From a virus: a DNA stretch of 64,000 bases. Below, piece by piece: positions 32,359-60,661 of the stretch. Location: positions 270,327-334,326 of the IMG/VR virus record IMGVR_UViG_3300049436_000052; one strand, 5' to 3'. The translations under genes were made by a program, and so were the position numbers. Under the pieces are notes generated by a model that saw only the letters and a program-made list of their open reading frames with translations, made no database searches and was not told the DNA's origin. Each line of letters starts with the position of its first letter. Within the stretch, counting starts at the first letter, position 1.

Positions 32359-32443
32359 CGGTAAGTGTTAGGATCGAACTAACGCAGCTTTTACACCCTA
32401 TTTGTTTAGCAAACAAACCTCTTAACCACTTGAGTAACTTACC
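32359..32443 (-). tRNA. tRNA-Ser(GCU)
   Basis: Acceptor GGTAAGT/ACTTACC, anticodon arm TTTGT-TTGCTAA-ACAAA, long variable arm, G73. Confidence 0.9.
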
Positions 32444-32449
32444 TAAATG

Positions 32450-32521
32450 TACCCCCAGATGAAATCGAATCACCATCAAAACGGTCGTAACGTTCCATTT
32501 TATCCATTAAACTATGGGGGC
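32450..32521 (-). tRNA. tRNA-Arg(ACG)
   Basis: GCCCCCA/TGGGGGT acceptor, loop TTACGAC, TTCGA T-loop. Confidence 0.9.
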
Positions 32522-32534
32522 ATTGATTATTAAG

Positions 32535-32605
32535 TCTTTCCAGATGGAGTCGAACCACCATTATAAATTTAGAAAATTTAGGTTTTTCCATTAAACTATG
32601 AAAAG
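32535..32605 (-). tRNA. tRNA-Arg(UCU)
   Basis: CTTTTCA/TGGAAAG acceptor, TAAAT-TTTCTAA-ATTTA. Confidence 0.85.
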
Positions 32606-32613
32606 ATGTTTTG

Positions 32614-32703
32614 TTACGGGAATGGGATTAAAACCCACGTTACACGTCTCTTTCGAGCGACATGACTTATGAGGCCACCGAGAAATCACTCCTCTATCCC
32701 ACA
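32614..32703 (-). tRNA. tRNA with CAU anticodon (Met, initiator-like, or Ile2) and a 23-nt variable arm
   Basis: TGTGGGA/TCCCGTA acceptor, GTGGC-CTCATAA-GTCAT, variable arm with GAAA tetraloop. Confidence 0.75.
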
Positions 32704-32710
32704 ATATGGG

Positions 32711-32784
32711 CTGTGCTGGAGAGACTCGGACTCCTAACTTACTGGTTAACAGCCAGTTACTCTAATCAATTGAGTTACAGCACA
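32711..32784 (-). tRNA. tRNA-Asn(GUU)
   Basis: TGTGCTG/CAGCACA, ACTGG-CTGTTAA-CCAGT, G73. Confidence 0.88.
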
Positions 32785-32797
32785 ATATAAATATATT

Positions 32798-33508
32798 TCA
32801 TTTTTTTCTATTTCTGGATGAATTTTTATTCCTTGCTCTAAAATTAATTGTCATTGAATGACAATTAGGACATAAAATTTCTAAATTATTTATATTACAA
32901 TTTTTAGCATCGCCATCAATATGATTAATTTCAGTTAAACTTTTTCCATCAATAGGATGTTTTTCATCCCACCCACATTTACTACATTTAGAACCTCTAA
33001 TCTCTTTTAAATATTTTCTAATAATAGTTTTTAATTGTATTGCCTTTCCATGCCATCCAACAGTTTCACCATTTAACCATCTTTCTATTGCATTTTTTTT
33101 AATACTAATATAAGTACATGTTTTAGAACAGTATATATTTTGTTTTTTTATTAGACGTTTTCCACAAATAAGACAAAATTCGTTTAATCTTTTTCTTTTA
33201 TTTTTTTTCACATAATTCACATTATTATATTTTGCAGAACAAGAATGTGAACAAAACAAATTAATCGACCCATTATGCTTAATATCATTTGCTTTTCGTT
33301 TAAACAATTTTCCACATGTTTTACAAGTACATTCACAAATTTTAACTGAAATGTCATTAATGTCTTTATATTTTAATCCAAGACTATATAATTTTAATTT
33401 AACAGATTTGCTTGTCCTATTTAAAATTTCGCCAATTTCGTTATATTTTTTATGTTTGTTAAATAATTCTATCAATAAATTCAATTCATCTTTATCCCAT
33501 TTTTTCAT
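32798..33508 (-). CDS. HNH homing endonuclease inserted in a tRNA cluster
   Basis: CSKCG, EINHIDGD..N....NLEILCPNCH; zinc-binding CxxC / FCS..C repeats. Confidence 0.85.
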   Translation of the reverse strand: MKKWDKDELNLLIELFNKHKKYNEIGEILNRTSKSVKLKLYSLGLKYKDINDISVKICECTCKTCGKLFKRKANDIKHNGSINLFCSHSCSAKYNNVNYVKKNKRKRLNEFCLICGKRLIKKQNIYCSKTCTYISIKKNAIERWLNGETVGWHGKAIQLKTIIRKYLKEIRGSKCSKCGWDEKHPIDGKSLTEINHIDGDAKNCNINNLEILCPNCHSMTINFRARNKNSSRNRKK

Positions 33509-33574
33509 ATCAATAACTTTTATTATAAATACTCAAATTGAGAAAATGATCGGAATCGAACAGATATTATTTTA

Positions 33575-33647
33575 AGGAGACATCTGGTAATGATCCAGAA
33601 TACATAGATCTTCAATCTGTTATATAAACCATCTTTGCCATATCTTC
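33575..33647 (-). tRNA. tRNA-Phe(GAA), degenerate
   Basis: Loop TTGAAGA and T arm TCTGG-ATCATTA-CCAGA; mismatches in acceptor, D and anticodon stems. Confidence 0.6.
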
Positions 33648-33668
33648 TTAAATTACTAAAACTATTTG

Positions 33669-33741
33669 TTGTCTTGGGAGAGCATGATTCTCCAACCTTC
33701 TCCGTATCAGGGAGTTACTCTACCAATTGAGCTACAAGACA
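33669..33741 (-). tRNA. tRNA-Ile(GAU)
   Basis: TGTCTTG/CAAGACA, CTCC-CTGATAC-GGAG. Confidence 0.85.
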
Positions 33742-33746
33742 ATAAG

Positions 33747-33829
33747 AGATGGGTATTCGATTTGAACGAATGTGTGCACATGCAAACTGTTTTGCAGACA
33801 GTCCCTATCAACCACTCAGGCAACCCATC
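33747..33829 (-). tRNA. tRNA-Cys(GCA) with long variable arm
   Basis: GATGGGT/ACCCATC, ACTGT-CTGCAAA-ACAGT, U73, 14-nt variable region. Confidence 0.85.
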
Positions 33830-33842
33830 AATATTTTATTCA

Positions 33843-33860
33843 CAATACGTCAAAGAACAT
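33843..33860 (-). promoter_or_regulatory. boxA-like antitermination element ATGTTCTTTGACGTATTG
   Basis: Resembles rrn boxA; second copy at 58793-58810. Confidence 0.5.
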
Positions 33861-33865
33861 AAAAC

Positions 33866-33898
33866 AAAAAAACCCGATTCATTTCTGGATCGGGTTGT
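33866..33898 (-). terminator. Attenuator terminator upstream of the 8-tRNA cluster
   Basis: AACCCGATCC-AGAAAT-GAATCGGGTT then TTTTT. Confidence 0.85.
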
Positions 33899-33929
33899 AG
33901 GAATAATGATTATCTATTCTTCTTTTTGC

Positions 33930-34058
33930 TTATATCATTATATATAACAACCCAATACCTATGTCAATACTATTTCTACGGAAGAAACATGACATAAAAT
34001 TTCCATTGCGATTTATTCTCGATATGGACGTTTGAGTTATTGTTATAATAGATTTCAT
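33930..34058 (-). CDS. Leader peptide MKSIITITQTSISRINRNGNFMSCFFRRNSIDIGIGLLYIMI (attenuator of the Cys/Ile/Phe/Asn/Met/Arg/Ser tRNA cluster)
   Basis: Hand translation; 20 of residues 11-31 match the cluster's amino acids; ATTGGGTTGT pairs with the terminator 5' arm. Confidence 0.85.
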   Translation of the reverse strand: MKSIITITQTSISRINRNGNFMSCFFRRNSIDIGIGLLYIMI

Positions 34059-34100
34059 TTTCGAATTCTTTACTTTTTTTTAAATTTTCGCTATTTCATT

Positions 34101-34121
34101 ACTAAATACTTTGCAAAGATA
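34101..34121 (-). promoter_or_regulatory. Tandem promoter motifs (Bacteroidota -7 TATCTTTG and phage AGTATTTA)
   Basis: TATCTTTGCAAAGTATTTAGT 43-63 nt upstream of the leader ATG. Confidence 0.6.
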
Positions 34122-35985
34122 AAAAAGATTTAAATATGATTAAAATATTTTGCAATTATTTTTCACCATCAAACACAAATGACACAAAAAAAAACAACAA
34201 ACCCTATGATTATAAGCCAAATACTCCACCAATTAAATTCTTTATCTTTCACAAGATAAATTAAAAAACTTACAACTGCCCAAATTGCAGATACGTTGAT
34301 TGTCAAAATAGACAAAATTTTAATTAATAGTCCCATAATTTTACATTTATTTGTTATATTTTTCTTTAATTTTAACATATGTTAAAAATTTTATGTTTTT
34401 TTATTCATAATTTCTCTAAGATTGCGTATTAGATTAGTAAAAACATTAACAGAAATCCAAGTACTTTTAAACGCACCCACATAATCACTATCCCACGTCT
34501 CACTACGATTATGTCCTGCTTGAGATTCATCAATAGCATCATTAATTGCTTTTTTTAGTTTTTTTTCTTCTTCTTTAGTCATAATATTAATATTTAAAAA
34601 TTAAAAATAACTCTATTTTCTTTACTATAATAATCTCCATTAAATTCCAATGTAGAATTTTCACTATTTTCTTCAACTAAACAATACAACCATCTAAGTT
34701 TACATAATTGATTGATTGTATTTGTTATTTTATTCCAATTTGGTTTATAAATATCACTTGCCGTATCAATATCGTCTAATAATTTATATTGATGTATTAT
34801 AATATCCAATAATGTTTTAATATTAATTCCTTTACGTTTAGACATTTCTTCATTAAATGTATTATCAAACAATTGAGACAAATTTTTATCATGAATATGA
34901 ATTTCTTTAGATTTTGCATGACAATAATTCAAATAAATATCATTTTTTCCTACATAATCTTCTGTTAAATCTTCAATTACTGACAACACATCAGCAAGTT
35001 TATCAACAACTTCTAGCATTTTAAATTTATCATTTCTCATTTTATATGTATTTAAAATTTTATTAAATCATATTTCTTCTAATCTTTTTAGAGATTTTAT
35101 TCTTAATTGTTCTATTTCTTCAAAACTTTGTCCTTCATAAGAATTTGATTGATTATAGCAATATCCATATCTTATTTCAGATAAAATTTTGCCAAGATGT
35201 TCTCCACCATCTTTCATTACGCCAATTTGGGCATTACCTATTTTAAATAGAAGATTTCTTAGAATTTCGAGTTCTTCTTTTTCGCTTAATTTTTCTTTTT
35301 TCATTATTTTTTTCATATTATTGGTAGTATTACTACTATTATTAGTTAAATTTTAATGAAATAAATCTATTAATTCATTATTCTTCATCTTTTATAAATA
35401 AATTATATTTAACTAATATGTTATATGGTAATGGAAATTCATCTTTCATTGTAGGATGAATAAGTTGTTTATTAGTTTCACCATCTTGGTATGCAAAAAA
35501 AATATCTGGTGACATTCCTGTTGCTGGATATGTTTTTATTCGTTTTATAACAACTTTAGCTGTTGATTTATCACCAAAAATTAATTTTCCTTTATTTCCT
35601 TCTTTTAAATCTAAACTCATGTTATTTATTATTTGTTAAATATTCCAAAACAATTTTCATTTTATTTTCATCATAAACAATGATTATACAACAACCATAT
35701 TCATCAATGATTGCATATCCATTCTTTGTAATGATTTTCTTATCATCCAAAATTATTAATGGAGATATTTTTTCGACTGTTGTTTTCACAGTTTCTTTTA
35801 TCTTTAAACGTTTTCATTTATTTTATTATGAATATCAATGTCATAATAAATTTTCTTATCAAATGCAATTGAACTCATGATAGTAAATGAGCCATTAAAA
35901 TATGACGTTCCTAAATTTTTATAAAGCTTTTTTGCTTCTTTTAAAAGAATTAAAAAATCAATGTAATTTATAGTTTTATTTTTCA

Positions 35986-36690
35986 TCACAGTTCTTTAAT
36001 TTCATTAATTCCTAAAATAGTAAAATCTATCCCCAATATATTTTCGAAATGATATTCATGATAATGTCCTGAGAACCATTTTTTTAAAGGATGATTATTA
36101 TTTATTAAATATTGATAGATCATATCAAATACTTTTCTGCTTTGTTTACAATATTCAATGACATCAGAATCTGTTAAATTATAATTCAATATTGGATATG
36201 TAATTGTTGGCATTCCATGAGTAAGAACATAATCAATTTTATAAGTATCCGATATTTCTTTTAATTTAATTTCATCAAAAACTGGCAATTCATTTTTCCA
36301 ATAATCTTTTCCTTCGGTTCTTAACTTATAATCAATACTTGCTTCACCACCAACGCATAGAACATTTCCTTTAATTGTTTCAATAACAGAATAATCTGAT
36401 AATAATTTTAAATTAGATAAATTCCATAAATCGTTAAAATATAGAGGATTGTCATGATTCCCTCTTATAGCGAGTAAGGTATTATTATTTTCTTTTAGTT
36501 CATCATTCAACCAATTTAAAATATTGATATAATACTTTTCTTTATGAAAACCTACACCGAAATCCCCAAGTTGAATAAATAATGAATCTTTAAACTCAAA
36601 TCTTTTGTGAAGTAAAAAATTTAAAGTTTTAAACTCACCGTGTATATCACCAATTAGATAAATATCTGTATTTGGATTGTTTAAAAACAT
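35986..36690 (-). CDS. Calcineurin-like metallophosphoesterase
   Basis: GDIHG, GDFG, GNHD, THG, GHYH. Confidence 0.9.
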   Translation of the reverse strand: MFLNNPNTDIYLIGDIHGEFKTLNFLLHKRFEFKDSLFIQLGDFGVGFHKEKYYINILNWLNDELKENNNTLLAIRGNHDNPLYFNDLWNLSNLKLLSDYSVIETIKGNVLCVGGEASIDYKLRTEGKDYWKNELPVFDEIKLKEISDTYKIDYVLTHGMPTITYPILNYNLTDSDVIEYCKQSRKVFDMIYQYLINNNHPLKKWFSGHYHEYHFENILGIDFTILGINEIKEL

Positions 36691-38389
36691 AATTTGTTGG
36701 ATATTATTGTGTGAAAATTAAATAAATTTTGTGAATCGTTATCAAATATAAAATTCATATAAAGTAATTGATCAAGTTCTTGGTTTAATTCATCACATGA
36801 TTCAATGTGACGAAATCCTAAATTATATTGATAATAGCTAAAGAATTTATCATCCATAACGTTTTTTATATTTCATCAAGATAATCATCAACAATTCCAG
36901 ATATTGCTTTATAACAATTATTAATTCCATCACTAACACCAGCATAATAAGATGCCGAATTTAATTGTTTTCTTGTTTCTGCATTTACTTCTAATTTATC
37001 ATATTTAATCATTAATTTTTCTAAAAACGAAAGAATAGTATTTCTTTTATCTTCAGATAATAACTTTTTAATTTCAGAAATTTCTCGTTTTGTTTCTTTT
37101 GTTATCATAATAAATCTTCTATAATTTTCTAAAAAATTAACAAACTATTCCATATATAAATCTAATACATGACTTAATGAAGAAATTGGTGTGAGAACAT
37201 CCATAGATAAAAAATCACTAAAACATAAACAATCTTGAGTAATAATAATTCTAATTTCTTTTAGTGCTTCACAAACAAAATAATCAAAGAATCTATCATC
37301 CATAACATTATTTTATATTTCGTCAAGATAATCATCGTTTGTAAATTTTTCATTAACAATATACCCTATTTCATCACACAAATCGTTCAAAATGCTATTA
37401 TCTATATTATCATAAAGAAGAGAACGAAATATAAAATACCTTGATTTAACATCTAATTTATTTCTACCTTCCCAACTTTCAAAACTTTTAAAATTTATAG
37501 AATTATAAAGTTTTTTATGCATAGTTCTGTTTGAATAAAATATTATCGACTATGCTATCAATACCACTAACATCAGGAAAAAAAGTCATAATATCTAGAA
37601 TAATATAATTAGTGTCAAAAGATTCTAATTCTTTAAAATAGTTTAAATATATAATATCTTTAATTGAGATGTCTATTGATTCTTTTTTGTTGTTCATTTT
37701 TATTACACAATTTCTAATCGATACGCTTTACCATCTCCCTTATCTTCACTTGCCTTAATTCCATAAGGGAAGCACATTTCCAATAAAAATCTTTTTGGGT
37801 ATATTATTGTAAAATTTTGTTTTTTATTATCAAACCATCCCCAATAATCTACAACCATATTGTTATCTTTTTTAGGAATTTCTTGATTATCGCTGATTTT
37901 TAAACAAACTTCAATCACATCTTCTGGTTTTTTTCCATATATACTTGCTAAATTAGGATGAATTCCAAAATGTTCATAATTCTTCCCATTAAATGTAGCA
38001 TTATGTTTAAACGTTGTATTCATTTTATTTTATTATACGACAAATATAAGAAAATGTTTTAAACTTTTGATTATTTATTAAATAATTTAGATTTTTTTAA
38101 CATTTCAATTAATTTCTCATTAGGAAATAGGTTGGGGTCAATTATTTTATCACCATCAATTGCTTTAACTTTCATTTGCGAGGGTTTTTGATATATTTTA
38201 AGCAAAATCAATTTTCCAAAATATGTGTCATCAAAATATTTAAATAATGATTTACTAATATTTCTTTCTTCGAATGTTTTTGATTTTATATCTACTAAAC
38301 ATTCTAAAACAACGATTTTATCATAAATATCAATTATTCTACAATTAATAGAATCAATTAATTTCCATTTCTTTTTCATAAAAATTGAT

Positions 38390-38887
38390 TTAGTTCTTCC
38401 TTACCAACAATATTTTAGGATTATCACCATAATTTCTACTGACTATCCGATAATTAGTAGGTGCATTCTTTTTGATATACTGTAGATACATTTCAAACCT
38501 TCTATTGTCTTCTTCATCGTTTTTTGTTGGTACAATTTCAATTTCTTTTGGATCTTCTTCGTTTATAAAATCTTTTACTATGTTAACCACAGTACTCATC
38601 ACTTTAAAAAGTTTGCCTTTGTTAATAATATCAGAAAATTTACCACCTTTTTCCTGATTGGCAAGAAATGAAACATTCCACATTCTTTCTGCTGGATCGT
38701 GATATATAGTTACTTGATAATTATCACCATCTTCAGTAGTAAAGCGATAGTAATAATCGAAATAATAATATTTTGAATCGAATTTTTGTCTTGTTTTTGT
38801 CCATGAATATGGTTGAAGTTTGATTTCGCCAATTTCATTAACAAAAGCAAATATTTCTTCTTTAATTATTTGAAGTAGAGTATTCAT
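38390..38887 (-). CDS. Hypothetical protein with IIKEEI N-terminal motif
   Basis: 165 aa ORF; AGTATTTATA at 38901-38910. Confidence 0.55.
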   Translation of the reverse strand: MNTLLQIIKEEIFAFVNEIGEIKLQPYSWTKTRQKFDSKYYYFDYYYRFTTEDGDNYQVTIYHDPAERMWNVSFLANQEKGGKFSDIINKGKLFKVMSTVVNIVKDFINEEDPKEIEIVPTKNDEEDNRRFEMYLQYIKKNAPTNYRIVSRNYGDNPKILLVRKN

Positions 38888-44083: not shown

Positions 44084-47000
44084 TTAGAAATGTATCTCAC
44101 ACGAATTTCCGTTACATGCGATAGCACCAGTTGAATCAATATCAGTATATTTAGGTTTAACGTTTAACTGTTTCCAATCAATATCTTTTATATCTCTATT
44201 AATCTCAATAAATTTATGGTAGTTGTTTACATCTTTCAAACAGTATGTCATTTCTTTTATTGAATTAAAATATCTATCAGAAAATTGTTTTGCTCTTCTA
44301 AGCCAATCTTTTTTCAACGGATAATTATGTAATGTAGAAATCAATTTACTATCTAAATATCTTTTATATTCCTCTAACTCTGGTTTAATGTTTAATTCAC
44401 TTAATTGTTTTAATGTTCCATTTTTAAATCCCAAATTTTTCCATAAAATTTCAGGTGTAGTATTTTTTATTTTTTCGTTAACTTCAATATCTGAATATTC
44501 CAATTTTTCGCCTAATCCTAAAACAGTATCACAAGCCATCCACAAGTTATTATTAAAAGCATTCAATCCATCAACGATCAAACCTGATGCAAATAAAACT
44601 GCATCCCCATATTTTCTCACAAGTTCTTCAGGTGAAGGTATTGCAGTAAAAGGTGCTTGGTTATAATCTTTATCTCCAGTCATTGGTAATAAACTAATTC
44701 CAGCAAATGTTTGTTTATTATCATAAATATAATTTTCCACAGCATCCCAATCATCTACAATAATAGTATTACTTACATTATGACGTATACTAGGATCAGT
44801 ACATAATTCAACATTTGTCCCATATTCAACCCAATTTTCTTGTGTTGTTTTAACATATTTTAGCAATTTAATCCCCATTAATTCATCTTTTAATATACTA
44901 TTTTTGGGGGTTGTTATTGGAAATGATATAACCCAATCGTTATTATTTGCAGACCAAACCGATTTTTCGACCATTTTAGGGTTAACTTCCACAAAATATT
45001 TGGCAATATCGTCTTCAACATTCACCTGAACATTTCTTATATATTGTTCAGAATGTTCACCATGTATCCCTGACGCACTTTTTAATAAAACGGAAGAATT
45101 TCCCGATGGTTTCACACATGTTGTACGAGCAGCTTGATTAATTCCAATCATTTGGGCAACTTCTTTATTTATTTCTTTAACAATTATTGCACCTTTTCTT
45201 TGAATTTCAGGATTTAGTAATATTTGTGGATTATTCATAAAACCAGTTATAGAAACCCCTAACAATGCTTCTCTGTCAAATATTTGTTTAGTAATTTCGT
45301 CAACATACTTAAAGTCAGTGTATGCTGCTTGCATTGTTCCCATAATTGCCCCAGCCTTACACGCCCCATAAAATTCTTCTTCTGTATTACATTTACTCCC
45401 ATTAATTTCACACAAGTTACATCCAATAGATCCTGATCTTCCATCTTCTGTTTTGGGTGAAAATCCAATCTCGAAACAATTTGAAACATTACAACCTTGA
45501 GTCCAATAAGTATGTGATTTATTATCAACAGTAATATCATATACTTCCTCTTCAGAAATAAAAGATTTGTTTATAATTTGTTTTGAAATATTTTCAGAAT
45601 TTAATTTACACCATTTTTTTAGATGAATTTCTAATTTTTCATTTTTATAGTTTTGTAAAAATCCGATATATTCATAAAACAAATCAACATCTTTAGATAT
45701 ATTTAAATCATAACTTTCTTTACAAATATATTCACCATTTGAAAATTTTGTTTTAGTTGATTTATTTGTTGTATAATAAGATGCAATTCCTATTGAATTT
45801 AACATTAATTGAACATCTTCTATTAAATTAAATGATGTTGATTTTAATGTTACACGTCTTCCAACAAAACTACCATTAGCACTATATAACCCTCTTAAAA
45901 ATGAACATATTATAGATATATCACCCTTTAAGAATCTTTCAGGTATTTTTCTTTCAAATGTTTTATTTAGTTCATCATACTTAATTGAAGTAATTATTTC
46001 ATATTGATATTCACCAACACCGTCTCTTTTTTTCAAGATAAGATTTTTTATTTCACTATCAAAATAATCAAAATCGTTTTTACCTATACATAATAATACT
46101 AAATTATTTGATGCTTTATGAACAGTTCCATCACCAATTACTAGTCCATCCATAATAATATTATTATCAAATATTGGTTTATTTACCATAATACCTCTTA
46201 ATAATTCTATATTTTCGGCTAAATCTATTTCAATTTTTTCATTATTATTTACTATTCTATGATTTTCTGTACCATAAAATGAATTAAATGTTGTTCCATA
46301 TCTATAAACCTTTTTTATTCCCGTTGACCATTTATTTGTTATTTTCGTCCAACCTTCTGAACTCCATATTTCATCACCAATATTAATATCTTTTAATTCT
46401 TTAATACCTTTTGGTGTTAATAATTTGGCCCATGCAGGTTGACAAGGGTTAAAAATATTATCCTCATTTTCCGTAAATCCAAAACCAGGTTCTCCATATT
46501 CTTTAGTTGATTGGAAAAATTTATGAAACTCTTCTTTTGTTAAATTATTTTTATTTAATAAGACACTATTATTAGATCTTGCTCGTTGTGGATTTTCAAT
46601 AAACCAATTTCCTGTTTTAGCTTTCATCATTTTCTCGTCATTGGGACTAAATAGACATACAGAAGCCGAACGCCTTAATCCTCCAGAGATAACAGCATCA
46701 CTCATATGCATGACAATATCATAAGCTAATATTGGTTCAACAACCCCATTAAAATTAGCTTTATCTAGTTCTTTTTCTAAAAGATCTTCTATTTTTTGAA
46801 TTGCATTTCGTAGTCCATCAGAACCTGGAGCTTTAAAGCCACCACTAATCATACTTCCTTTAGGCCTTATTTCACTATAATCAAAATGAATACAACAATT
46901 TTGAAATTTTGGAAAAGTAACATCACCATCAAAATAAGAAGATAGAAGTATTCCAATCGCATCTGCCCAGCCTTCAATACTATCCTCTATAATATGGGTT

Positions 47001-47446
47001 TTTGAACGATTTGATCTTTGTTTAATTTTGGGAAGTTTTTCAATATGTTTGTTTTGAACTGAAAATCCAACACCACAACCACATAAAAGCCAATACATAC
47101 AATCTTGAAAAAATCTTACTCTATCACAATACATTCCAATACAATTATAAATTTTAGCATTGTGTTTAAGTATTGGAGCACCACCGAATTGTAAACCTCT
47201 TTGTGAACCTAATACATATTTTTCTTTGTATTTTTTTCTTGCAAATTCATAATATTCTTTAAATTGTGGATTATTTTCCAATATTTCTTTAAATTTAATT
47301 TGGTGCATTTGATCAAAAACTCTATCAACACTTTCTTCCCAAGTTTCGTATCGTCCCAATTCTTCATTGTATTTACTATAACTTGAATAAAATTTAAAAT
47401 TTGATAACAGATCATGACCTAAGTCATTGAATTTCATTTTCTTCAT
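44084..47446 (-). CDS. nrdJ: Ribonucleotide reductase catalytic subunit (NrdJ/class II-like) with intein
   Basis: GCGVGFS, GGLRRSA, GEPG, NP|CFEI, CNLCE, TTCVKPSG, C-terminal CNGNSC; class assignment tentative. Confidence 0.8.
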   Translation of the reverse strand: MKKMKFNDLGHDLLSNFKFYSSYSKYNEELGRYETWEESVDRVFDQMHQIKFKEILENNPQFKEYYEFARKKYKEKYVLGSQRGLQFGGAPILKHNAKIYNCIGMYCDRVRFFQDCMYWLLCGCGVGFSVQNKHIEKLPKIKQRSNRSKTHIIEDSIEGWADAIGILLSSYFDGDVTFPKFQNCCIHFDYSEIRPKGSMISGGFKAPGSDGLRNAIQKIEDLLEKELDKANFNGVVEPILAYDIVMHMSDAVISGGLRRSASVCLFSPNDEKMMKAKTGNWFIENPQRARSNNSVLLNKNNLTKEEFHKFFQSTKEYGEPGFGFTENEDNIFNPCQPAWAKLLTPKGIKELKDINIGDEIWSSEGWTKITNKWSTGIKKVYRYGTTFNSFYGTENHRIVNNNEKIEIDLAENIELLRGIMVNKPIFDNNIIMDGLVIGDGTVHKASNNLVLLCIGKNDFDYFDSEIKNLILKKRDGVGEYQYEIITSIKYDELNKTFERKIPERFLKGDISIICSFLRGLYSANGSFVGRRVTLKSTSFNLIEDVQLMLNSIGIASYYTTNKSTKTKFSNGEYICKESYDLNISKDVDLFYEYIGFLQNYKNEKLEIHLKKWCKLNSENISKQIINKSFISEEEVYDITVDNKSHTYWTQGCNVSNCFEIGFSPKTEDGRSGSIGCNLCEINGSKCNTEEEFYGACKAGAIMGTMQAAYTDFKYVDEITKQIFDREALLGVSITGFMNNPQILLNPEIQRKGAIIVKEINKEVAQMIGINQAARTTCVKPSGNSSVLLKSASGIHGEHSEQYIRNVQVNVEDDIAKYFVEVNPKMVEKSVWSANNNDWVISFPITTPKNSILKDELMGIKLLKYVKTTQENWVEYGTNVELCTDPSIRHNVSNTIIVDDWDAVENYIYDNKQTFAGISLLPMTGDKDYNQAPFTAIPSPEELVRKYGDAVLFASGLIVDGLNAFNNNLWMACDTVLGLGEKLEYSDIEVNEKIKNTTPEILWKNLGFKNGTLKQLSELNIKPELEEYKRYLDSKLISTLHNYPLKKDWLRRAKQFSDRYFNSIKEMTYCLKDVNNYHKFIEINRDIKDIDWKQLNVKPKYTDIDSTGAIACNGNSCEIHF
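45479..46444 (-). mobile_element. Intein (322 aa) with LAGLIDADG endonuclease, inserted before the RNR catalytic Cys
   Basis: NP|CQPAWAKLLTP...GLVIGDG...FLRGLYSANG...VYDITV...VSN|CFEI. Confidence 0.88.
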
Positions 47447-47964: not shown

Positions 47965-48046
47965 TTGTGGTGGTAGGAATCAAACCTACATAGCTGAAAG
48001 CGAAGCATTTACAGTGCTCTGATTTAGTCAATTTACCATCACCACA
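47965..48046 (-). tRNA. tRNA-Tyr(GUA)
   Basis: TGTGGTG/CACCACA, GAGCA-CTGTAAA-TGCTT, long variable arm. Confidence 0.85.
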
Positions 48047-48054
48047 ATATATTG

Positions 48055-48125
48055 TGCCCCCACTTGGTTACGATCCAAGTTCTACAATTTAAAAGATTGT
48101 AGCTCTACCATTGAGCTATAGAGGC
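48055..48125 (-). tRNA. tRNA-Lys(UUU)
   Basis: GCCTCTA/TGGGGGC, ACAAT-CTTTTAA-ATTGT. Confidence 0.9.
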
Positions 48126-48137
48126 ATTTATAAAAAC

Positions 48138-48171
48138 AAAAAAACCCGAAACTTATTCAGAATCGGGTTTT
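48138..48171 (-). terminator. Attenuator terminator upstream of tRNA-Lys/Tyr
   Basis: AAAACCCGA...TCGGGTTTTTTT. Confidence 0.8.
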
Positions 48172-48198
48172 AACTTAATAACCTAAAATTTAAAATTT

Positions 48199-48282
48199 TT
48201 AGCACATAACTTTCCCAATTCTTACTAAGATTTGTTTCTTATAAGATTTTGAGTAATAATATGTGCTGCTTGTCAAAAACAT
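48199..48282 (-). CDS. Leader peptide MFLTSSTYYYSKSYKKQILVRIGKVMC (attenuator of the Lys/Tyr tRNA cluster)
   Basis: Hand translation; YYYSKSYKK run; AGAATTGGG pairs with terminator arm CCCGATTCT; TATCTTTG at 48313-48320. Confidence 0.87.
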   Translation of the reverse strand: MFLTSSTYYYSKSYKKQILVRIGKVMC

Positions 48283-48670
48283 TTTTTAATATGATAAAAT
48301 TTAAAGTAATTACAAAGATAACAATAAATAGTTATTTTTCCAAAAAAATTTCGTTAAAAGTTGTTAATAAACTATTTTATTTTTTAGCTTCTCTATCATT
48401 GTCTTCATCTTCAAGTTCTTCTAGCGTTTCGAGATTATCTTGATAATATCCAGCCAGAGCATTTAAACTAAAATCTTCAACAAATGAAATATTTTCGGTA
48501 TTTGTTATTTGTTTTTTTATTTCATTTATTTTTACTTTTAATACAGACATTAAACTTTTTCTAGGTTCACCCATGATTTTTCGTTTTAAATAAAATTATA
48601 AAAAAAACTACTATTAACTATAAATACTACGGTAAATAGGGATTAGACGGATTTGTTGAAATAAATATTT

Positions 48671-53604: not shown

Positions 53605-54054
53605 ATGTTAAATATTATGAAAAGGTCTTTAAAATCGTTAATTGGCGAAGAAATAAAAAATATTATCAATGAAGGTTATGTGATGAATGATGATCGTTTT
53701 AAATTTCAACATAGGGTTGAAAATCCATCTTTTTTTAACACTAATTCATTTAGTGCTGACTATGATACTGATATAAGTGAAAGCAATATCACAATCTTCT
53801 GGAATGTCTCGTTCTGGTTAAACGATTTTGGTATCGAAAATTTAATTATAAACGTAGAAAAGGTTGAAGGAACATATACATTAGAACTCATTAACAAACA
53901 AAGTGGAGAAACTGAACAAGAATCTGAAAAAAACATTAATGAAATCGAATGGAATTTTATTGTAGATGATGCCACTCTTCAAAAAGGAGGTAGTTTGTAT
54001 GTCTCTGATTTAATATTTGATTTTGCTAAAAAAACTTGTGAAGTTCAATTTTAA
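53605..54054 (+). CDS. Hypothetical acidic protein with LIGEEI motif
   Basis: AGTATTTATA at 53588-53597 upstream. Confidence 0.55.
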   Translation: MLNIMKRSLKSLIGEEIKNIINEGYVMNDDRFKFQHRVENPSFFNTNSFSADYDTDISESNITIFWNVSFWLNDFGIENLIINVEKVEGTYTLELINKQSGETEQESEKNINEIEWNFIVDDATLQKGGSLYVSDLIFDFAKKTCEVQF

Positions 54055-54112
54055 CGAATAAATATAAAACCAAAATCCTATTAATATAATTATTATTAAT
54101 AGGATTTTTTCT

Positions 54113-54403
54113 TTAAAACATAATTTCAACATAATCTCTTTGAAGAACGTTTGAAAAAGTTTTTACAATTTTAACTGTTTTTTTCATCCATTGTTTGCGA
54201 TTCTTTGAAACTAATTTCCAGTTTGGATGTTTTAGATTTTCAATACTATCATATGTTCCAAAGCAATCCCATGTACAATTTTCTCCTCGATGATAACCAC
54301 ATCTTGAACATCTTATTTTACCAACATGTTCAAGATATCTTTTGTAAATTCTATTGAATTCACCACGATTTGTTGTTTTTCCTAAAATTTCTTTTGTTCC
54401 CAT
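54113..54403 (-). CDS. Basic hypothetical protein with a CxxC-H zinc site
   Basis: CSRCGYHRGEN, PNWKLVSKNRKQW. Confidence 0.55.
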   Translation of the reverse strand: MGTKEILGKTTNRGEFNRIYKRYLEHVGKIRCSRCGYHRGENCTWDCFGTYDSIENLKHPNWKLVSKNRKQWMKKTVKIVKTFSNVLQRDYVEIMF

Positions 54404-56551
54404 TGTTTTCTAAGATTTAACCTAGAAAACAGATGCCCCTTCATTAGATAAATTTATTTTCATATTACTTTTTCTTTTTTTTCTTTATTATTGTACTTTT
54501 CTTCCTAACTGGATCGTTAATTTTTATTGGTTTTCCACAGCAATTATCGTTATCGTTTTTCTTTTTCATTTATTCAAATGGTTTTCCAAAAACATCACTA
54601 TCTTTCATAGATAATTTATTGTTTTTTACTAAATCTTGTTTTATTGTGTCAAGAACCAAACAGCAAATGTTTATCATGTCTTTCTCAAAGTAAGAAATAA
54701 ATTCATTCACTTGTTTTTCACTTGCCAATGATATTATTTCTTTTGCTTCTTTTCGATATTCTTTAGCAATTTCATTATCAATGATAATATTTGCTTTGTC
54801 TTTTAATTCCATTGCTTTATTATATAAATAGGTTAAACTTTAGGAATAATATATCCATCACCATTTTTATCATTAAATTCATGACTTGATAAAAATTTCT
54901 TCGATAATTTATCTTTTTCATCAAAATCAATATTATCATCTACATCATTTATAGAATTTTTATAAATTTCCAATAATTCGTTTAATTTATCAAATAAGTT
55001 CCACATAATTTAAAATAATATTCTTTTCTTAATAATTTTATCAAAATCATTAAAGTTATTAAAATCCCATCTAATTCTTTTAGTTCGTTTTTGTTTCATT
55101 AATCGAACCCCACACAATTTATTATTAACAATTTTAGTTCCAATACAATATCCAAAATACCTTAAAATTGGATTAATCAATACTTTTAATAATGAACGAT
55201 GATTAGCGATCTTTCCATTTTTATATAATATTCCTAAATTTAATTTCATTATATTTTTTTATCTTTTCTAAAAGAAGTTTTCAAATCAAAACCATGTTTA
55301 ATGATTTTTGTTCTATTATCAACTTCAACAATTTCTTTTCCATTACTACCCAAAACACCACCAAGAAACATACTTATTTCCTGAAAAGCCTGATAAGAAC
55401 CAAAAACTTTATAAAATTGATAATATTTTAATAGTGGATTAATAATAAATTTTTCATAATAATGTGAATTGAATTTATCAAATCTAAGCGAATATGAACT
55501 TTCGTAAACAAAAATAGGTGTATTATATTCCCTAAATTTATCAATTAGATCAAGATTAGCAATTTTATCATATCGTTCTTTAAAATTATCTCTTTTGCTA
55601 TGAGCAATAATTGTTTTAATCTCATTAAAATCATAAATAATATCAAAATCTAATTCATTATCATCATTAATATAAAAGAATTTAAAACCAATATATAATT
55701 TTCCACAAAATCCAACAACAATATATTGATAAGATTTATATTTAATATTTGGTTTTAGAGAAGGGGAATTGTAATGTTCTAAATCAACAATTGGTGAAAT
55801 ATTATCTTTTTCTTTTTTTGAAGACCAATAAATTTGAAACAACTTTCTTTTAAGAAATTCTGGGAAATCTTTATCCTTCCAATTGGATATTTTTGGTTGT
55901 CGATCATAAACAATAGTTTTGTCAATACCACTTGTCTGAACAACCCCATCATAATAATCTTTTAAAGAAGACTTGGTTAATATTAACATAATAATTCTTT
56001 TTTATAAATAATATGAAGAAAATATACTCTCGTCAAAAATTTCCTCATCAAGTTCATCAATTACATTTTCAATATTTCTAAAAATATCTAAAATATTAGA
56101 ATCAGTTTCATTTACAAGATAGTTAACAAATGTTTCATCAAGATCATCAACCATCATATGCAAATCCTTTATGTTAAAATTTTTAAAATTCATATATATA
56201 CGTGAAAATTATTAAAATTCATATAAAATATTATATTCATTTCATCGTCAAGTTCAAAAATATTATCTCGCAAATTGCTATCAATTATATTTAACATTTC
56301 ATTATCAATTTCAAATATAAGAGATACATTTAAATTATTTTCAATACTATTAATTTTATAAAACAAATTTCCACTTGAAAAATGCATAGGTTATAATATA
56401 TTATAGAAATAAATTTCTAAAAATAATAGAAAATGTGAAAATTTTTGATGATGTCCAACCGCAAATACTATTTAACGTTATTGAGCATAAAATTTAAAAT
56501 AAACATCAATTAATGCCATTCAAAAACTTCACAAATTTAAAGAAATTTTTT

Positions 56552-56965
56552 TTAATATGAATAAATTAATTCAACTTTTTTCCACTTATCGGTGTTGTAG
56601 TTTAAAACCCAAACAGTTATATCGTATTTAATTGCAACAGTCATTAGTCTTTTTACATATGCATCATCTTTCAAACCTTCAACAATTAAAAGAACGCCTG
56701 GTTTTTTATTGAGTTTATATGCATAATACAAAGATTGCCCCACACCCTCACTCCACCTATCAGCAAATTCGACTTCAATGACAAATGTGTCTGTAACGAT
56801 ATCAACCTTTGCCAGATCGTTTAAAACAACTTCAGTTTTACCATTCATTATTTCAGCAAAACCATCACGATAGTAAGATTCTTTCATTTTTTGAGAAAAT
56901 GATGATAATGGAATTATAGATAAAATTATTGTTATTATAATAATGATAATTATATTTTTCTTCAT
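56552..56965 (-). CDS. Signal-peptide-bearing PD-(D/E)XK-like protein
   Basis: Hydrophobic N-terminus; E..L.D..VD..T..IEV..W.E..GQ..Y. Confidence 0.45.
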   Translation of the reverse strand: MKKNIIIIIIITIILSIIPLSSFSQKMKESYYRDGFAEIMNGKTEVVLNDLAKVDIVTDTFVIEVEFADRWSEGVGQSLYYAYKLNKKPGVLLIVEGLKDDAYVKRLMTVAIKYDITVWVLNYNTDKWKKVELIYSY

Positions 56966-58560
56966 GATTTATAATCTATTTGCACCTAATGTTATTATTA
57001 TTGAGATGAATGCTAACATCTCAATCCACCAAAAATATTTTACTTTTAATAAAAATAGTATTAATGATATAATTCCAAATAATAGTGTTAGATACCACAT
57101 ATTGAAATCAACTATTGTTGAAACCTGAGATAAAATTATTCCACCAAATGCTGATGTCATATGGACATTAAAAGTTAATTTACCGTCTTTAAATGAAGTA
57201 GCAGCACCAACAAACATCATCATTCCACCTGAAAAAAACATTAAAGGAGTTGCACCTATTACTATAATTGGTAAAGAAATTCCCCAAATAAATAATGTGA
57301 ATAAAATTTTTTGTTTATTTGGTAAAACATAGTATGATTGAGATATCGATCTTTGTATACCAAATTTTATGGCAATGTAGAATACATAGGAAACAAACGT
57401 TCCAATTAATAAAACGAACAATAATTGATTTAAACTCATAAACTTAAAATTTTAAAGTGATGCTAAAAAAATTAAAACTAATATTACTAATAATACTCCA
57501 GCACAAATTAGAAAGGTTAGCATTGTTCCACAAAATCTACAGAATTTCTTTTTACCTACCAATTCAACATCACATGATAAACATTTATACATATTAATTA
57601 TTTTAATATATATAAATAGTGTAATTTTACATGGTTTCTAAACTAAATCAATAAATTTTATTTAAAATATAAGAAAAAATCAATTGGCGATGGATTATTA
57701 CCACCAATATATGGCCACAACTTATAACCAAATAGTTTATAATTAGTTACAATATTACTAGATTTGGCGATTAGTTCATTATTTCCTTGATCTATGATTT
57801 CAAATAGAATTTCTTTAGATTTTTTCGAAAAAGATATTGAAAATATATATTTTCTATCGTAATCAATATCACATAAAAATTCAGAAAATCTTCTACTTTT
57901 AATGTAATAGTAAGTACCAATATTAATATTTGAATCATTCAACATTCTAAATGCAAATCGATAAGATTCATTTTTTAAATGATGTCCAAAAGAAATTCCT
58001 AATATTTTACTAAAATCTAATTTATCATTTCCTTCAAACTCAAAATAAGATTTTTTAGGAAATTCAATGACATGAGAAATCTTATATTCTTTCTTTATAT
58101 AAAGAATTAAAGAAAATAATCTTCTAAATAGAATTAATGGCGAATGTTTACCTTTTCTAATTTTAATTATCATCAATAGTATTTTTTATGCCCAAAATAA
58201 ATCCAATAATTAACAATATAATAAAATAACCTAAAGAATATAATCCAATAACAAAATATGTTACATTCCTTGTATTATCTGTGATTACCAAACCAATTAA
58301 AAAAACAATAAATGATATTATCATTTTTAACACAGGTGACTTTAAGAAAATTAGGCTAAATAAGGTTTTCAGAAATTTAAATATTTTTTTCATAACTTTT
58401 TAATATAAATAGTTTAATGCAAAGATATGAAATTATTTCAAAATAAAAAAATTTTAAGAAAATTTGGCATATATAGCCAAATATGGATATATAGTCACTA
58501 TATAAGCCTTTAAGACGATATATTAATTATTTCTTAATAAATAAAACTAAATTTGTTTTG

Positions 58561-58635
58561 TAGCACCGATCCGAATCGAACGGATTTTTTCATCCTTGAA
58601 GGGGATGCGGCTCGACCTATATCGCCCTCAGTGCC
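58561..58635 (-). tRNA. tRNA-Glu(UUC)
   Basis: GGCACTG/CGGTGCT, CATCC-CCTTCAA-GGATG, ATCCG-TTCGATT-CGGAT. Confidence 0.8.
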
Positions 58636-58712
58636 ATATTATTTTCATAAAATTTAATCCATTTTTTTGTACTTTATAAAAAAATACTATAAAGTACAAA
58701 AACTGACTAAGG

Positions 58713-58783
58713 CCGTCCCCGTGAGATTCGAACTCCTCCTACACATCGACAGTGTGTCATGCTACCATTACACTACGAAGACG
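58713..58783 (-). tRNA. tRNA-Asp(GUC), 8-bp acceptor stem
   Basis: CGTCTTCG/CGGGGACG, ACACA-CTGTCGA-TGTGT, G73. Confidence 0.82.
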
Positions 58784-58817
58784 TTATTTTAAAAATATTT
58801 CAAAGAACATTAAATTG

Positions 58818-58891
58818 TACCCCCAGAAGAATTCGAATCTTCAACACACAGTATCTAACGCTGCTACCTCTACCAATTGGGCTATGGGGGC
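58818..58891 (-). tRNA. tRNA-Leu(UAG) with short variable loop
   Basis: GCCCCCA/TGGGGGT, loop GTTAGAT, GAAGA-TTCGAAT-TCTTC. Confidence 0.8.
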
Positions 58892-58902
58892 ATATAAAAA
58901 AC

Positions 58903-58934
58903 AAAAAACCCCAACAAATTCATGTCGGGGTTTT
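58903..58934 (-). terminator. Attenuator terminator upstream of tRNA-Leu/Asp/Glu
   Basis: AAAACCCCGACA-TGAATT-TGTTGGGGTTTTTT. Confidence 0.85.
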
Positions 58935-58961
58935 AGATAAAATTATACAATAATTATATAT

Positions 58962-59054
58962 TTATTTCCCGACAAAACATAACAATTCCTCATCAGCAGC
59001 CCATAGAAGAGTATCTGCTAAAGATAAAGTCAATATGTCGAGTAAATTTTTCAT
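58962..59054 (-). CDS. Leader peptide MKNLLDILTLSLADTLLWAADEELLCFVGK (attenuator of the Leu/Asp/Glu tRNA cluster)
   Basis: Hand translation; 9 Leu, 3 Asp and 2 Glu of 30 residues; TGTCGGG pairs with terminator arm CCCGACA. Confidence 0.82.
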   Translation of the reverse strand: MKNLLDILTLSLADTLLWAADEELLCFVGK

Positions 59055-59248
59055 GTTAAACTGTTGTTCCTACCATTTTCATAAAAAGTAATTTTAATTT
59101 TTTCATAAATACTTTGTTTTTTCAAAAACTTCCCCAAATCATAAGAAATGAGGAAGTTTTTTTTAAAAATAACCTTATAATTAAAACTTTCAAAATGAAA
59201 AGCAAAGATAGATATATTTTCTTAATCTACCAAATATTTTAACATTAT

Positions 59249-59707
59249 TTAACTAATATAAACAAAACCATCATTACCAACGTAAATGTTTTTTTCTTTC
59301 ATGTTCCTAGCAATATTTTGTAGAGTATCATTCCAATCATCAAAAAATCCTACACCATGTCCATTTCTTGACAACCATAAATTATGTCCTAATGCATTTG
59401 CATCATAACTATTTAATTCATCTGGTGCTTGTTCTTTTGCTGTTTTGATAAAATCGATAATATCTTGTCGAGCAATTTCTTTTGATTTTTCATCAACATC
59501 AAAAATTGTTTTTTCTTTTAAACCGTTTTCGTCACTTTCTTCTGCCCATAAAGCAGTTTCTAAGTAACTAGGTAAAACTTCATTAACATCTAAATTATTT
59601 TCTAAATTAACGTTCTCATTTAACATTTTTTTGGGTTTATAGGTGTTATCAATTTTTGACATTAATTCAAATAATTGTTTTTTGTTTCTTGTATCTTTAT
59701 TTTTCAT
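59249..59707 (-). CDS. Conserved phage hypothetical protein
   Basis: YLETALW and GHNLWLSRNGHGVGFFD motifs. Confidence 0.55.
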   Translation of the reverse strand: MKNKDTRNKKQLFELMSKIDNTYKPKKMLNENVNLENNLDVNEVLPSYLETALWAEESDENGLKEKTIFDVDEKSKEIARQDIIDFIKTAKEQAPDELNSYDANALGHNLWLSRNGHGVGFFDDWNDTLQNIARNMKEKNIYVGNDGFVYIS

Positions 59708-59971
59708 AGTTTATAATAATTTTTTTAATAATAAGATTTTCAATGTTTTGCCATTGTTCTTAAACGATAATTCAACTTTAGAATTTTCACGAAATTTTAT
59801 ATATGATCTTCCCAATTCATCAATAACTTCAACAGTATTTACATCATTAAGGAAGATTGTATCGTTTTTCATCTCAACCAATTCTTCGTTCGATTTTTTT
59901 AAATTCATTTAAAAAACATTTTATATAAATACTATAAAAAGTTATTAATTAAACGTATTATTTAAAAATAG

Positions 59972-60054
59972 TTGCTCTGGCAGAATTCAAATCTGCACGC
60001 CTTACGGCACAAAAGTCAAAGTTTTGCGAGTCTAATCAATTCCTCCACAGAGCA
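59972..60054 (-). tRNA. tRNA-Gln(UUG) with a Leu-like long variable arm
   Basis: TGCTCTG/CAGAGCA, CAAAA-CTTTGAC-TTTTG, variable TGCCGTAAGGCGT. Confidence 0.78.
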
Positions 60055-60065
60055 ATATAGTATTT

Positions 60066-60142
60066 TGGGGGTTAGGTGGAGTATGATTCCACATCTTTCA
60101 AGGTCACAGCTTGATGCTCTATCCATTTAAGCTACTAATCCC
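60066..60142 (-). tRNA. tRNA-His(GUG)
   Basis: G-1:C73, TCAAG-CTGTGAC-CTTGA. Confidence 0.88.
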
Positions 60143-60174
60143 ATATAAATAATCTTAAATTATTTGATTATCAG

Positions 60175-60246
60175 TCGAGCGTGCCGAAATCGAATCGTTC
60201 CTGAATGTTCCAGACATCCCATGCTAACCATCACACCCCACACTCG
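60175..60246 (-). tRNA. tRNA-Pro(UGG), 8-bp acceptor stem
   Basis: CGAGTGTG/CACGCTCG, GGATG-TCTGGAA-CATTC. Confidence 0.78.
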
Positions 60247-60261
60247 AAAAATTTATAAAAT

Positions 60262-60298
60262 AAAAAACCCCATTCAATTTTTATCTTGAATGGGGTTT
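60262..60298 (-). terminator. Attenuator terminator upstream of tRNA-Pro/His/Gln
   Basis: AAACCCCATTCAA-GATAAAAA-TTGAATGGGGTTTTTT. Confidence 0.88.
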
Positions 60299-60321
60299 GT
60301 GATAAAACCTAAAATCATTTT

Positions 60322-60405
60322 TTAAACATAGATTTCCCATTCAACATTTTGTGGATGTTGTGGTTGGGGATGCTGAACGCACAATATGTTTAAAACATTT
60401 TTCAT
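60322..60405 (-). CDS. Leader peptide MKNVLNILCVQHPQPQHPQNVEWEIYV (attenuator of the Pro/His/Gln tRNA cluster)
   Basis: Hand translation; 9 consecutive Q/H/P codons; TTGAATGGG pairs with terminator arm CCCATTCAA; TAAATTTG at 60423-60430. Confidence 0.9.
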   Translation of the reverse strand: MKNVLNILCVQHPQPQHPQNVEWEIYV

Positions 60406-60661
60406 TTTCCTTAATTAAAATACAAATTTACTCGTTTAAATTCAATTAACCAAATTTATTTAGTTAAAATATATTAAAAATAAACATAACCGCTATTTTC
60501 GGCAAAGAAATCATTTATCATATTTACTACTTTATCAAACATAACTTGAAGAATTTATTTCAAGCAATGACAATAATTCCTTATTTTTACATAAATACTC
60601 AAAAATTTAAAAAAATATTTTAATAGATTATCATAGTATTTATAATAAAAAAATATTTCAC

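Follow-up and report, generated by a model that had tools for sequence, protein, structure and literature searches.

Candidate multivalent leader-peptide attenuators precede the four tRNA gene clusters in a 64-kb stretch of an uncultivated phage genome

The stretch of DNA examined here (the window; 64,000 nucleotides, positions 270,327 to 334,326) is the last 64 kb of the 334,326-bp uncultivated virus record IMGVR_UViG_3300049436_000052, has a G+C content of ~24%, and carries genes mostly on the minus strand. All tRNA genes of the window are arranged in four minus-strand clusters, here termed A to D, and each of these clusters probably forms one transcription unit whose expression is controlled by a multivalent transcription attenuator of the leader-peptide (ribosome-mediated) kind. 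The sequence-level predictions of leader-peptide attenuation that were tested were nearly all supported, and the evidence, read directly from the nucleotide sequence, comprises the anatomy of the units, a frame-specific match between leader peptides and downstream tRNAs, the complementarity of each leader to its own terminator, and the conservation and covariation of these features in related viral contigs. According to the proposed mechanism, transcription would start at a host-type promoter (TAnnTTTG) and enter a short open reading frame (ORF) that samples the amino acids of the downstream tRNAs. With fast decoding, the ribosome would reach the last codons of the ORF and mask a 7-9-nt segment (region 2), whereupon a GC-rich hairpin would form and the polymerase would terminate 13-41 nt before the first tRNA gene. 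A shortage of one or more of the sampled aminoacyl-tRNAs would instead stall the ribosome upstream; region 2 would then pair with the terminator's 5' arm ahead of synthesis of the 3' arm, and the polymerase would read into the tRNA genes. Since the tRNA product would relieve the stall, such a circuit would act as negative feedback, adjusting the supply of phage tRNAs to the demand for decoding.

The layout that an earlier note on this DNA had described, namely a promoter motif, a leader of 27-42 amino acids, a hairpin with a T-run, and tRNA genes, was found in all four units (Table 1). In each, a TAnnTTTG box is followed by an ATG-initiated ORF of 27-42 codons, a GC-rich hairpin with a T-run, and the tRNA genes; the leader stop codon lies 24-33 nt upstream of the hairpin, and the stem is separated from the first tRNA by 13-41 nt. 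TAnnTTTG is the -7 element of Bacteroidota sigma-A type promoters. It is found 25-156 nt upstream of each of the four leader ATGs and, in most of a set of 30 units from this and related contigs (described below), 20-95 nt from the ATG, compared to a genome background of 0.21 boxes per 200 nt. A scan of the four units revealed no TAnnTTTG box between any terminator and its tRNAs, and in unit A a single box was found in the entire 1.9-kb cluster. Because the only boxes precede the leaders, the tRNA genes are, on this evidence, reachable only by polymerases that pass the terminator. From the promoter box alone, we infer a host belonging to the Bacteroidota; the matches to a TnpB-type gene near unit D, spread across unrelated phyla, were uninformative about the host. 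An extended consensus around the -7 box, approximately GTAACATTTTATAYCTTTG....GTATTTAG, is present in loci L024, L026, L027, L035, and L037 as well as at window positions 34090-34125, which suggests that the units share one promoter class. It should be noted that the interval between the box of unit C and leader C (59056-59200) also contains a weak hairpin (CTTCC...GGAAG) followed by the T-run TTTTT, and a 16-codon ORF, rich in Lys, Leu, and Met, that ends 1 nt before the leader ATG; in relatives, the promoter is just 40-65 nt from the ATG.

Each leader is enriched in the amino acids of its own tRNA cluster, in agreement with the earlier note. In binomial tests against the amino-acid frequencies of the long ORFs of the phage, residues cognate to the downstream tRNAs made up 29/41 of leader A (p = 7e-6), 8/26 of leader B (p = 0.028), 14/29 of leader C (p = 1.2e-3), and 9/26 of leader D (p = 7e-5), and none of the off-diagonal comparisons identified a leader as significantly enriched for the amino acids of another cluster. 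The true assignment of leaders to clusters scores at the top of the 24 possible permutations, and the p-value combined by Fisher's method is 1e-10, or 2.5e-9 when the weak Pro and Phe genes are omitted. Moreover, the match is confined to one frame: across 28 units, the downstream tRNAs account for 54% of the residues read in the ORF frame versus 17% in each of the other frames, and the ORF frame contains 0 stops versus 60 and 65 in the other two. The control codons of unit D are nine in number and consecutive, while the Arg codons of leader A (AGA, CGC, CGT, AGA) represent both codon families, with both Arg tRNAs encoded downstream.

Within its last codons, each leader has a stretch complementary to the 5' arm of its own unit's terminator, as had been claimed; the complementarity spans 9 nt in unit D, 7 nt in C, 8 nt in B, and 9 nt in A, inclusive of one G-U pair in each of the B and A duplexes. 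The duplexes between leader 3' ends and their own arms have energies of -10.9 to -15.4 kcal/mol, with p-values of 2e-4 to 4e-3 each when compared to 5000 random 45-nt windows of the genome and a combined p of ~1e-8. When all leaders were paired with all arms in a 4x4 matrix, the diagonal ranged from -12.6 to -13.2 and the off-diagonal from -6.3 to -10.8. In a genome-wide control comprising 32 terminator-like hairpins, each scored by the complementarity of its 5' arm to the 88 nt upstream of the hairpin, the four tRNA terminators rank 1-4, an outcome with a chance probability of 2.8e-5. The distance from the end of region 2 to the stop codon is 2-15 nt in the phage and approximately -2 to 36 nt across the units of relatives. 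Constrained folds of three states, which are a model and not a measurement, reproduce the trp/his logic that the earlier note had proposed. With a ribosome stalled on the control codons and the RNA made as far as the 5' arm, the antiterminator is predicted to form in all four units; a ribosome that has reached the stop codon covers region 2, and the terminator is predicted to form; and the terminator is likewise the predicted structure of naked RNA, in which region 2 is sequestered. A hairpin between region 1 and region 2, which would serve as an anti-antiterminator or a pause site, reaches p<0.05 in 10 of the 30 units and is significant in most units of the C type; in this type, it accounts for the conservation of the N-terminal codons.

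A search with the reductase gene next to unit B identified a 364.7-kb contig (G001), the closest relative of the phage (77% identity), which carries 54 tRNAs and has homologs of all four leaders before larger clusters. An alignment of two C-type leaders found ten more viral contigs, and a scan of metagenome contigs added further units; the four leader types recur in 10 other viral contigs. A composition-blind rule, which called for a terminator, a tRNA no more than 1.2 kb away, and an ATG ORF of 15-60 codons with its end at most 90 nt before the terminator (the longest such ORF being taken), returned 30 units from 11 viral contigs, all belonging to the same four homologous types. These 30 units are related, so that p-values calculated from them overstate independence; the four types themselves are four independent cases. 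D-type leaders with QPQPQQHPQ precede Pro/His/Gln tRNAs, C-type leaders precede Asp/Glu/Val/Leu/Ala/Trp, B-type leaders with YYYGKKSYKK precede Tyr/Lys, and A-type leaders precede Cys/Asn/Ile/Ser/Phe/Gly/Thr/Arg. For 20/20 amino acids, the mean leader frequency across the 30 units is higher where a cognate tRNA is present in the unit. The expectation, voiced in the earlier note, that leaders rich in Ala, Gly, Thr, Val, and Trp would accompany clusters with those tRNAs was borne out in the relatives (frequencies with versus without the cognate tRNA: Ala.119/.025, Gly.099/.054, Thr.091/.040, Val.135/.048, Trp.034/.017). The phage itself has no Val tRNAs, and its leader C contains one Val versus 3-5 in relatives; this leader nonetheless keeps a Trp and three Ala along with that Val, matching tRNAs in the C clusters of relatives. 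These observations are read as a loss of the C-cluster Val, Ala, and Trp tRNAs from the phage, with the Trp and Ala residues of leader C as putative relics, and with 16 tRNAs (three of them low-scoring) versus 54 in G001 the phage looks like a reduced version. Among cultured phages, no DNA match and no leader match were found, and the reductase had distant matches only. A search via the AAA ATPase beside unit B and a search with an A-type leader alignment each returned no relatives, and an exact D-type pattern search matched only the closest relative.

Every leader homolog has kept the ATG, the open frame, and a stop at region 2, with indels in multiples of three, and the variable middle of the C leaders shuffles among Val, Ala, Leu, Asp, and Glu without fixed positions. 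The pairing between region 2 and the 5' arm is kept in 27 of the 30 units when a narrow window is applied and in nearly all with a wider window. That this pairing co-varies, which had been suggested by the differences among the four units of the phage, is corroborated by compensatory changes among relatives in three of the leader types: GAACGGG/CCCGTTC versus GAATGGG/CCCATTC in the D type (in G010), AAGACTGG/CCGGTCTT versus GAATCGGG/CCCGATTC in the B type (G009 and G001), and ATCGGG/CCCGAT versus GTCGGG/CCCGAC in the C type (in L058). In the D-type alignment, 89% of cells pair and two pairs change on both sides, a result reached by 9/500 shuffles. Column-wise counting of pairs worked for the D type only, the B alignment being broken by hairpin indels, and per-sequence duplex energies were used in place of such counts. 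Separately, the flanks of C-type terminators (L019, L020, L026, L028, L061, and others) can form an outer helix that brackets the hairpin (e.g., CACTCC...GGAGTG, ACACGT...ACGTGT, and ACCTCC...GGGGGT), the strands of which co-vary between contigs; the phage has no outer helix. This helix may be a processing stem that forms after read-through.

Not all tRNA genes in these viruses are associated with leaders. In G001, some tRNAs (Leu, Leu, Met) are found among protein genes without a leader. The claim that all tRNA clusters of the phage have leaders holds for the four clusters of the window and fails for a fifth tRNA-like locus outside the window (genome 220339-220417, minus strand), which lacks a leader ORF and follows a protein gene and a hairpin. 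The gene at this locus, called as Gly(ACC), has an enlarged anticodon loop. A 238.8-kb relative (G004) has a single array of 39 tRNAs, and there a 32-codon ORF comprising 19 different amino acids (p = 0.004; L010 reverse strand, ~1882-2032) precedes a terminator situated ~195 nt before the array. Antiterminator complementarity in this case was not significant (p = 0.16); it is possible that the ORF is an all-in-one leader.

Several observations weigh against attenuation of these clusters. Translation of the leaders, termination, and regulated read-through are predictions made for an uncultivated phage, for which the sequencing runs that cover the region are DNA runs from bioreactor and wastewater metagenomes, and both the host phylum and the coupling of transcription to translation are presumed. 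In G005, a more distant relative, the tRNAs follow protein genes directly and have no leaders. Some leader residues have no cognate tRNA in the cluster (Trp, Ala, and Thr in C; Thr and Gly in A). At the level of codons, 6/9 Leu codons of leader C are TTA or TTG and would not be read by the sole Leu tRNA (TAG), four Ser codons of leader A are TCN and would not be read by Ser(GCT), and the seven ATA codons of leader A require that the CAT tRNA be of the Ile2 type. Three of the tRNA genes are low-scoring and possibly decaying, and the enrichment in unit B is modest when taken alone (p = 0.028). Statistical support for the hairpin between region 1 and region 2 is confined to the C type; the D type is borderline, and neither A nor B reaches significance. 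Additionally, the terminator is favoured over the antiterminator at equilibrium in units B, C, and D; the switch decision must therefore be kinetic, as it is in known attenuators. Finally, a conserved box (GTTCTTTGA...) lies between the terminator and the first tRNA in many A and C units and, if it were a promoter, the attenuator would be bypassed. In the phage, this box (GTTCTTTGAC(A/G)T..) is found at 33850-33858, where it precedes tRNA-Cys in cluster A, and at 58800-58808, where it precedes tRNA-Asp, after tRNA-Leu, in cluster C. It is also present in L018-L028 just after C-type terminators and is extended in relatives to ~23 nt ending in GGAAATTT. Either RNA processing or a role as a phage promoter would be conceivable for the box. 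In the phage, units B and D lack it and have 13-15 nt between the terminator stem and the first tRNA.

The box bears on an alternative in which each mini-ORF and its terminator form a self-contained small-peptide gene, with the tRNAs expressed constitutively through leaky read-through or from an unrecognised phage promoter (the GTTCTTTGA box) and with no regulatory meaning in the match between peptide and cluster. The occurrence of the box in units A and C and in many relatives, the fact that jumbo phages often have their own promoters, and the conservation of the leader peptides in sequence (e.g., an N-terminal MKNLLDIL) would all be compatible with such genes. This alternative leaves unexplained, however, why four unrelated peptides mirror their own tRNAs in the ORF frame only, and why the 3' end of each ORF matches its own 5' arm with compensatory changes. 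Moreover, there is hardly room for a box in units B and D, where it is absent from the 13-15 nt before the first tRNA, and residues in the middle of the C leaders are shuffled, with no fixed positions; self-contained peptide genes are regarded as very unlikely. The arrangement could also be imagined as an RNA-only sensor, in which an untranslated leader RNA binds tRNAs by codon-like triplets in the manner of a T-box. Triplets in the leader could indeed pair with the anticodons of the tRNAs behind it, and T-boxes, too, have a terminator/antiterminator pair. Against this stand the lack of a T-box or other Rfam match at the leaders, the retention in every homolog of the start codon, the open frame, and the stop at region 2 while other frames are closed, and the tandem arrangement of nine or more control codons, which fits ribosome stalling and not a single specifier. 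An RNA-only sensor is, on balance, highly improbable.

A further alternative retains translation of the leader and reverses its effect, such that efficient translation would promote read-through, for instance through a coupled ribosome that pushes the polymerase forward or opens up the hairpin, and tRNAs would be made in a feed-forward manner when decoding is good. The polarity that is preferred here is itself deduced, and the absence of a strong region-1/region-2 hairpin in A and B means that naked RNA could default to read-through. Yet the stop codon is 24-33 nt before the hairpin and thereby outside the reach of a terminating ribosome, and the segment within the ORF that is complementary to the 5' arm has the properties of an antiterminator that translation would mask, leaving this reversed polarity with very little credence. 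The view that small ORFs, terminators, and tRNA genes have come together by chance, the genome being AT-rich, is favoured by the commonness of short ORFs, an open frame of 27-42 codons having a probability of 0.02-0.08 each at the genome composition. The combined p-values (~1e-10 for composition and ~1e-8 for pairing), the genome-wide rank test (2.8e-5), and the conservation of the units in 10 other contigs reduce the likelihood of coincidence to almost nil, and it is rejected at the level that these tests allow.

Classical leader-peptide attenuators, such as trpL, hisL, leuL, pheL, and thrL of enterobacteria, control amino-acid operons. The phage units resemble the trp/his-type attenuators in having a promoter, a short ORF with regulatory codons, and a region 2, close to the end of that ORF, in competition for the terminator's 5' arm, and in both cases smooth translation of the leader leads to termination (here as a prediction). 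Unit D, with its run of nine Gln/His/Pro codons, resembles hisL in form. Unlike the classical systems, the genes regulated here would be tRNA genes and one HNH ORF and not biosynthetic, transport, or synthetase genes; the product tRNA would act directly on the sensed step; the element resides in a phage; and a region-1 hairpin is supported only in some types. Multivalent attenuators are also known, as the ilvGMEDA leader responds to Ile, Val, and Leu and the thr leader to Thr and Ile, with a shortage of one amino acid sufficient to open the operon. Similarly, a single phage leader samples several amino acids, although the sampled set reaches seven or eight amino acids in unit A and, in contrast to the ilvGMEDA and thr leaders, corresponds to the identities of the tRNAs behind the terminator and changes with them in relatives. 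The attenuator of pheST, with its pheM leader, controls phenylalanyl-tRNA synthetase. It shares with the phage units the control of a component of the decoding apparatus by a leader peptide through the supply of charged tRNA; it differs in that pheST concerns a synthetase gene and one amino acid, whereas the phage elements precede the tRNA genes themselves. T-box riboswitches bind uncharged tRNA directly and without translation. Both designs involve a terminator/antiterminator decision that reports on the state of specific tRNAs, but the phage design is an ORF, and Rfam scans (including E-value mode over the clusters) gave no RF00230-type or other Rfam hit at the leaders. The Bacteroid-trp motif, which has a leader with Trp codons, would set an earlier example of leader-peptide attenuation within the presumed host phylum; the genes it controls are bacterial tryptophan genes, and it is not homologous to the phage leaders and has no Rfam match here. 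This motif (RF01692) is listed among candidate cis-regulatory RNAs of Bacteroidetes (PMC2864571).

In the full-text literature covered, which takes in few subscription journals, no description of leader-peptide control of tRNA genes was found, and such control was encountered only for amino-acid and synthetase genes. Phage tRNA genes are generally regarded as constitutive cargo that compensates for codon bias or for tRNA-cleaving defences, and little has been established on how phages control them. If the proposed attenuation is correct, the phage measures decoding speed for each codon group and tops up only what is short, which would represent a direct feedback from translation to tRNA synthesis of which no description was found for any organism. 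The physiological trigger, like leader translation and the polarity of the switch, is a matter of inference: decoding could be slowed as the host tRNA pool runs down, through a mismatch in codon usage, or by a tRNA-cleaving defence, with anticodon nucleases (PrrC, PARIS, retron) as hypothetical agents of the last. A more far-reaching proposal, which is tentative and considered rather doubtful, is that the attenuators are decoding-speed sensors that serve as an inducible counter-defence. A host anticodon nuclease, or shut-off by the host, would deplete a tRNA, ribosomes would stall on the corresponding leader, and the matching replacement block would be switched on; the Tyr/Lys unit would be dedicated to countering nucleases directed at tRNA-Lys and tRNA-Tyr, and the autoregulation of tRNA genes via a codon-matched test peptide would be widespread in large phages. 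The rule that the leader spells the cluster can be read from sequence and could be of use in annotating tRNA operons, in inferring tRNAs that a lineage has lost, and in building codon-specific sensors.

The earlier note counted 16 tRNA genes in four minus-strand clusters. The clusters stand, and the count stands only if three low-scoring genes are included: ARAGORN at default settings identified 13 tRNAs in the window, all on the minus strand, to which Rfam added Tyr(GTA) at 47966-48045 (31 bits, low-scoring). For Pro(TGG) at 60174-60246, which carries C in place of U at position 33, the ARAGORN threshold had to be relaxed, and Phe(GAA) at 33574-33648 is a weak call with an Rfam score of 21.6 bits. 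The positions of the tRNA genes and of the regulatory features of each unit are compiled in Table 1.

Table 1. Features of the four tRNA units, given in window coordinates and listed from unit D to unit A.
Feature	Coordinates	Strand	Remarks
Unit D promoter -7 box TAAATTTG	60423..60430	-	25 nt upstream of leader ATG
Leader ORF D	60322..60405	-	27 codons; codons 11-19 (60375-60349) = QHPQPQHPQ
Unit D antiterminator segment TTGAATGGG	60336..60344	-	same as terminator 3' arm; predicted to pair with 5' arm
Unit D intrinsic terminator and T-run	60258..60297	-	hairpin 60297-60266, -17.7 kcal/mol
Cluster D tRNAs	59971..60246	-	Pro(TGG) 60246-60174 (weak, C33), His(GTG) 60141-60067, Gln(TTG) 60054-59971
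Unit C promoter -7 box TATCTTTG	59203..59210	-	156 nt upstream of leader ATG
Leader ORF C	58962..59054	-	30 codons; Leu/Asp/Glu = 14/29 residues
Unit C antiterminator segment TGTCGGG	58968..58974	-	in last leader codons
Unit C intrinsic terminator and T-run	58897..58934	-	hairpin 58934-58905, -17.1 kcal/mol
Cluster C tRNAs	58560..58891	-	Leu(TAG) 58891-58817, Asp(GTC) 58783-58711, Glu(TTC) 58635-58560
Unit B promoter -7 box TATCTTTG	48313..48320	-	38 nt upstream of ATG
Leader ORF B	48199..48282	-	27 codons; core YYYSKSYKK
Unit B antiterminator segment GAATTGGG	48214..48221	-	in last leader codons
Unit B intrinsic terminator and T-run	48133..48171	-	hairpin 48171-48141, -13.7 kcal/mol
Cluster B tRNAs	47966..48125	-	Lys(TTT) 48125-48054, Tyr(GTA) 48045-47966
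Unit A promoter -7 box TATCTTTG	34114..34121	-	63 nt upstream of ATG
Leader ORF A	33930..34058	-	42 codons; Ser/Ile/Arg/Asn/Phe/Met/Cys = 29/41 residues
Unit A antiterminator segment ATTGGGTTG	33948..33956	-	in last leader codons
Unit A intrinsic terminator and T-run	33863..33896	-	hairpin 33896-33871, -11.6 kcal/mol
Cluster A, part 1	within 32358..33829	-	in order: Cys(GCA), Ile(GAT), weak Phe(GAA) 33648-33574, Myb/HNH ORF 33508-32798
Cluster A, part 2	within 32358..33829	-	after Myb/HNH ORF: Asn(GTT), CAT tRNA, Arg(TCT), Arg(ACG), Ser(GCT)

Cluster A is interrupted by a 236-aa ORF (32798-33508, minus strand) with a Myb-like domain and a weak HNH_3 match, which is probably an insertion of the homing-endonuclease type; G001 also has ORFs between terminator and tRNAs, such as a 212-aa ORF at L006:966-1604. 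The tRNA with a CAT anticodon in this cluster (32613-32703, minus strand) is 91 nt in length and has a long variable arm, a feature seldom seen in Met or Ile2 tRNAs; given the seven ATA codons of leader A, it might be a reader of ATA. Among the neighbouring genes, the ribonucleotide-reductase-like gene (1120 aa; 44084-47446, minus strand) contains a LAGLIDADG domain at residues 514-595 that is probably an intein. Just upstream of unit D is a TnpB-type gene (61261-62496, minus strand) with OrfB_IS605 and Cas12f1-like TNB domains, the nearest genomic relatives of which are spread over unrelated phyla.

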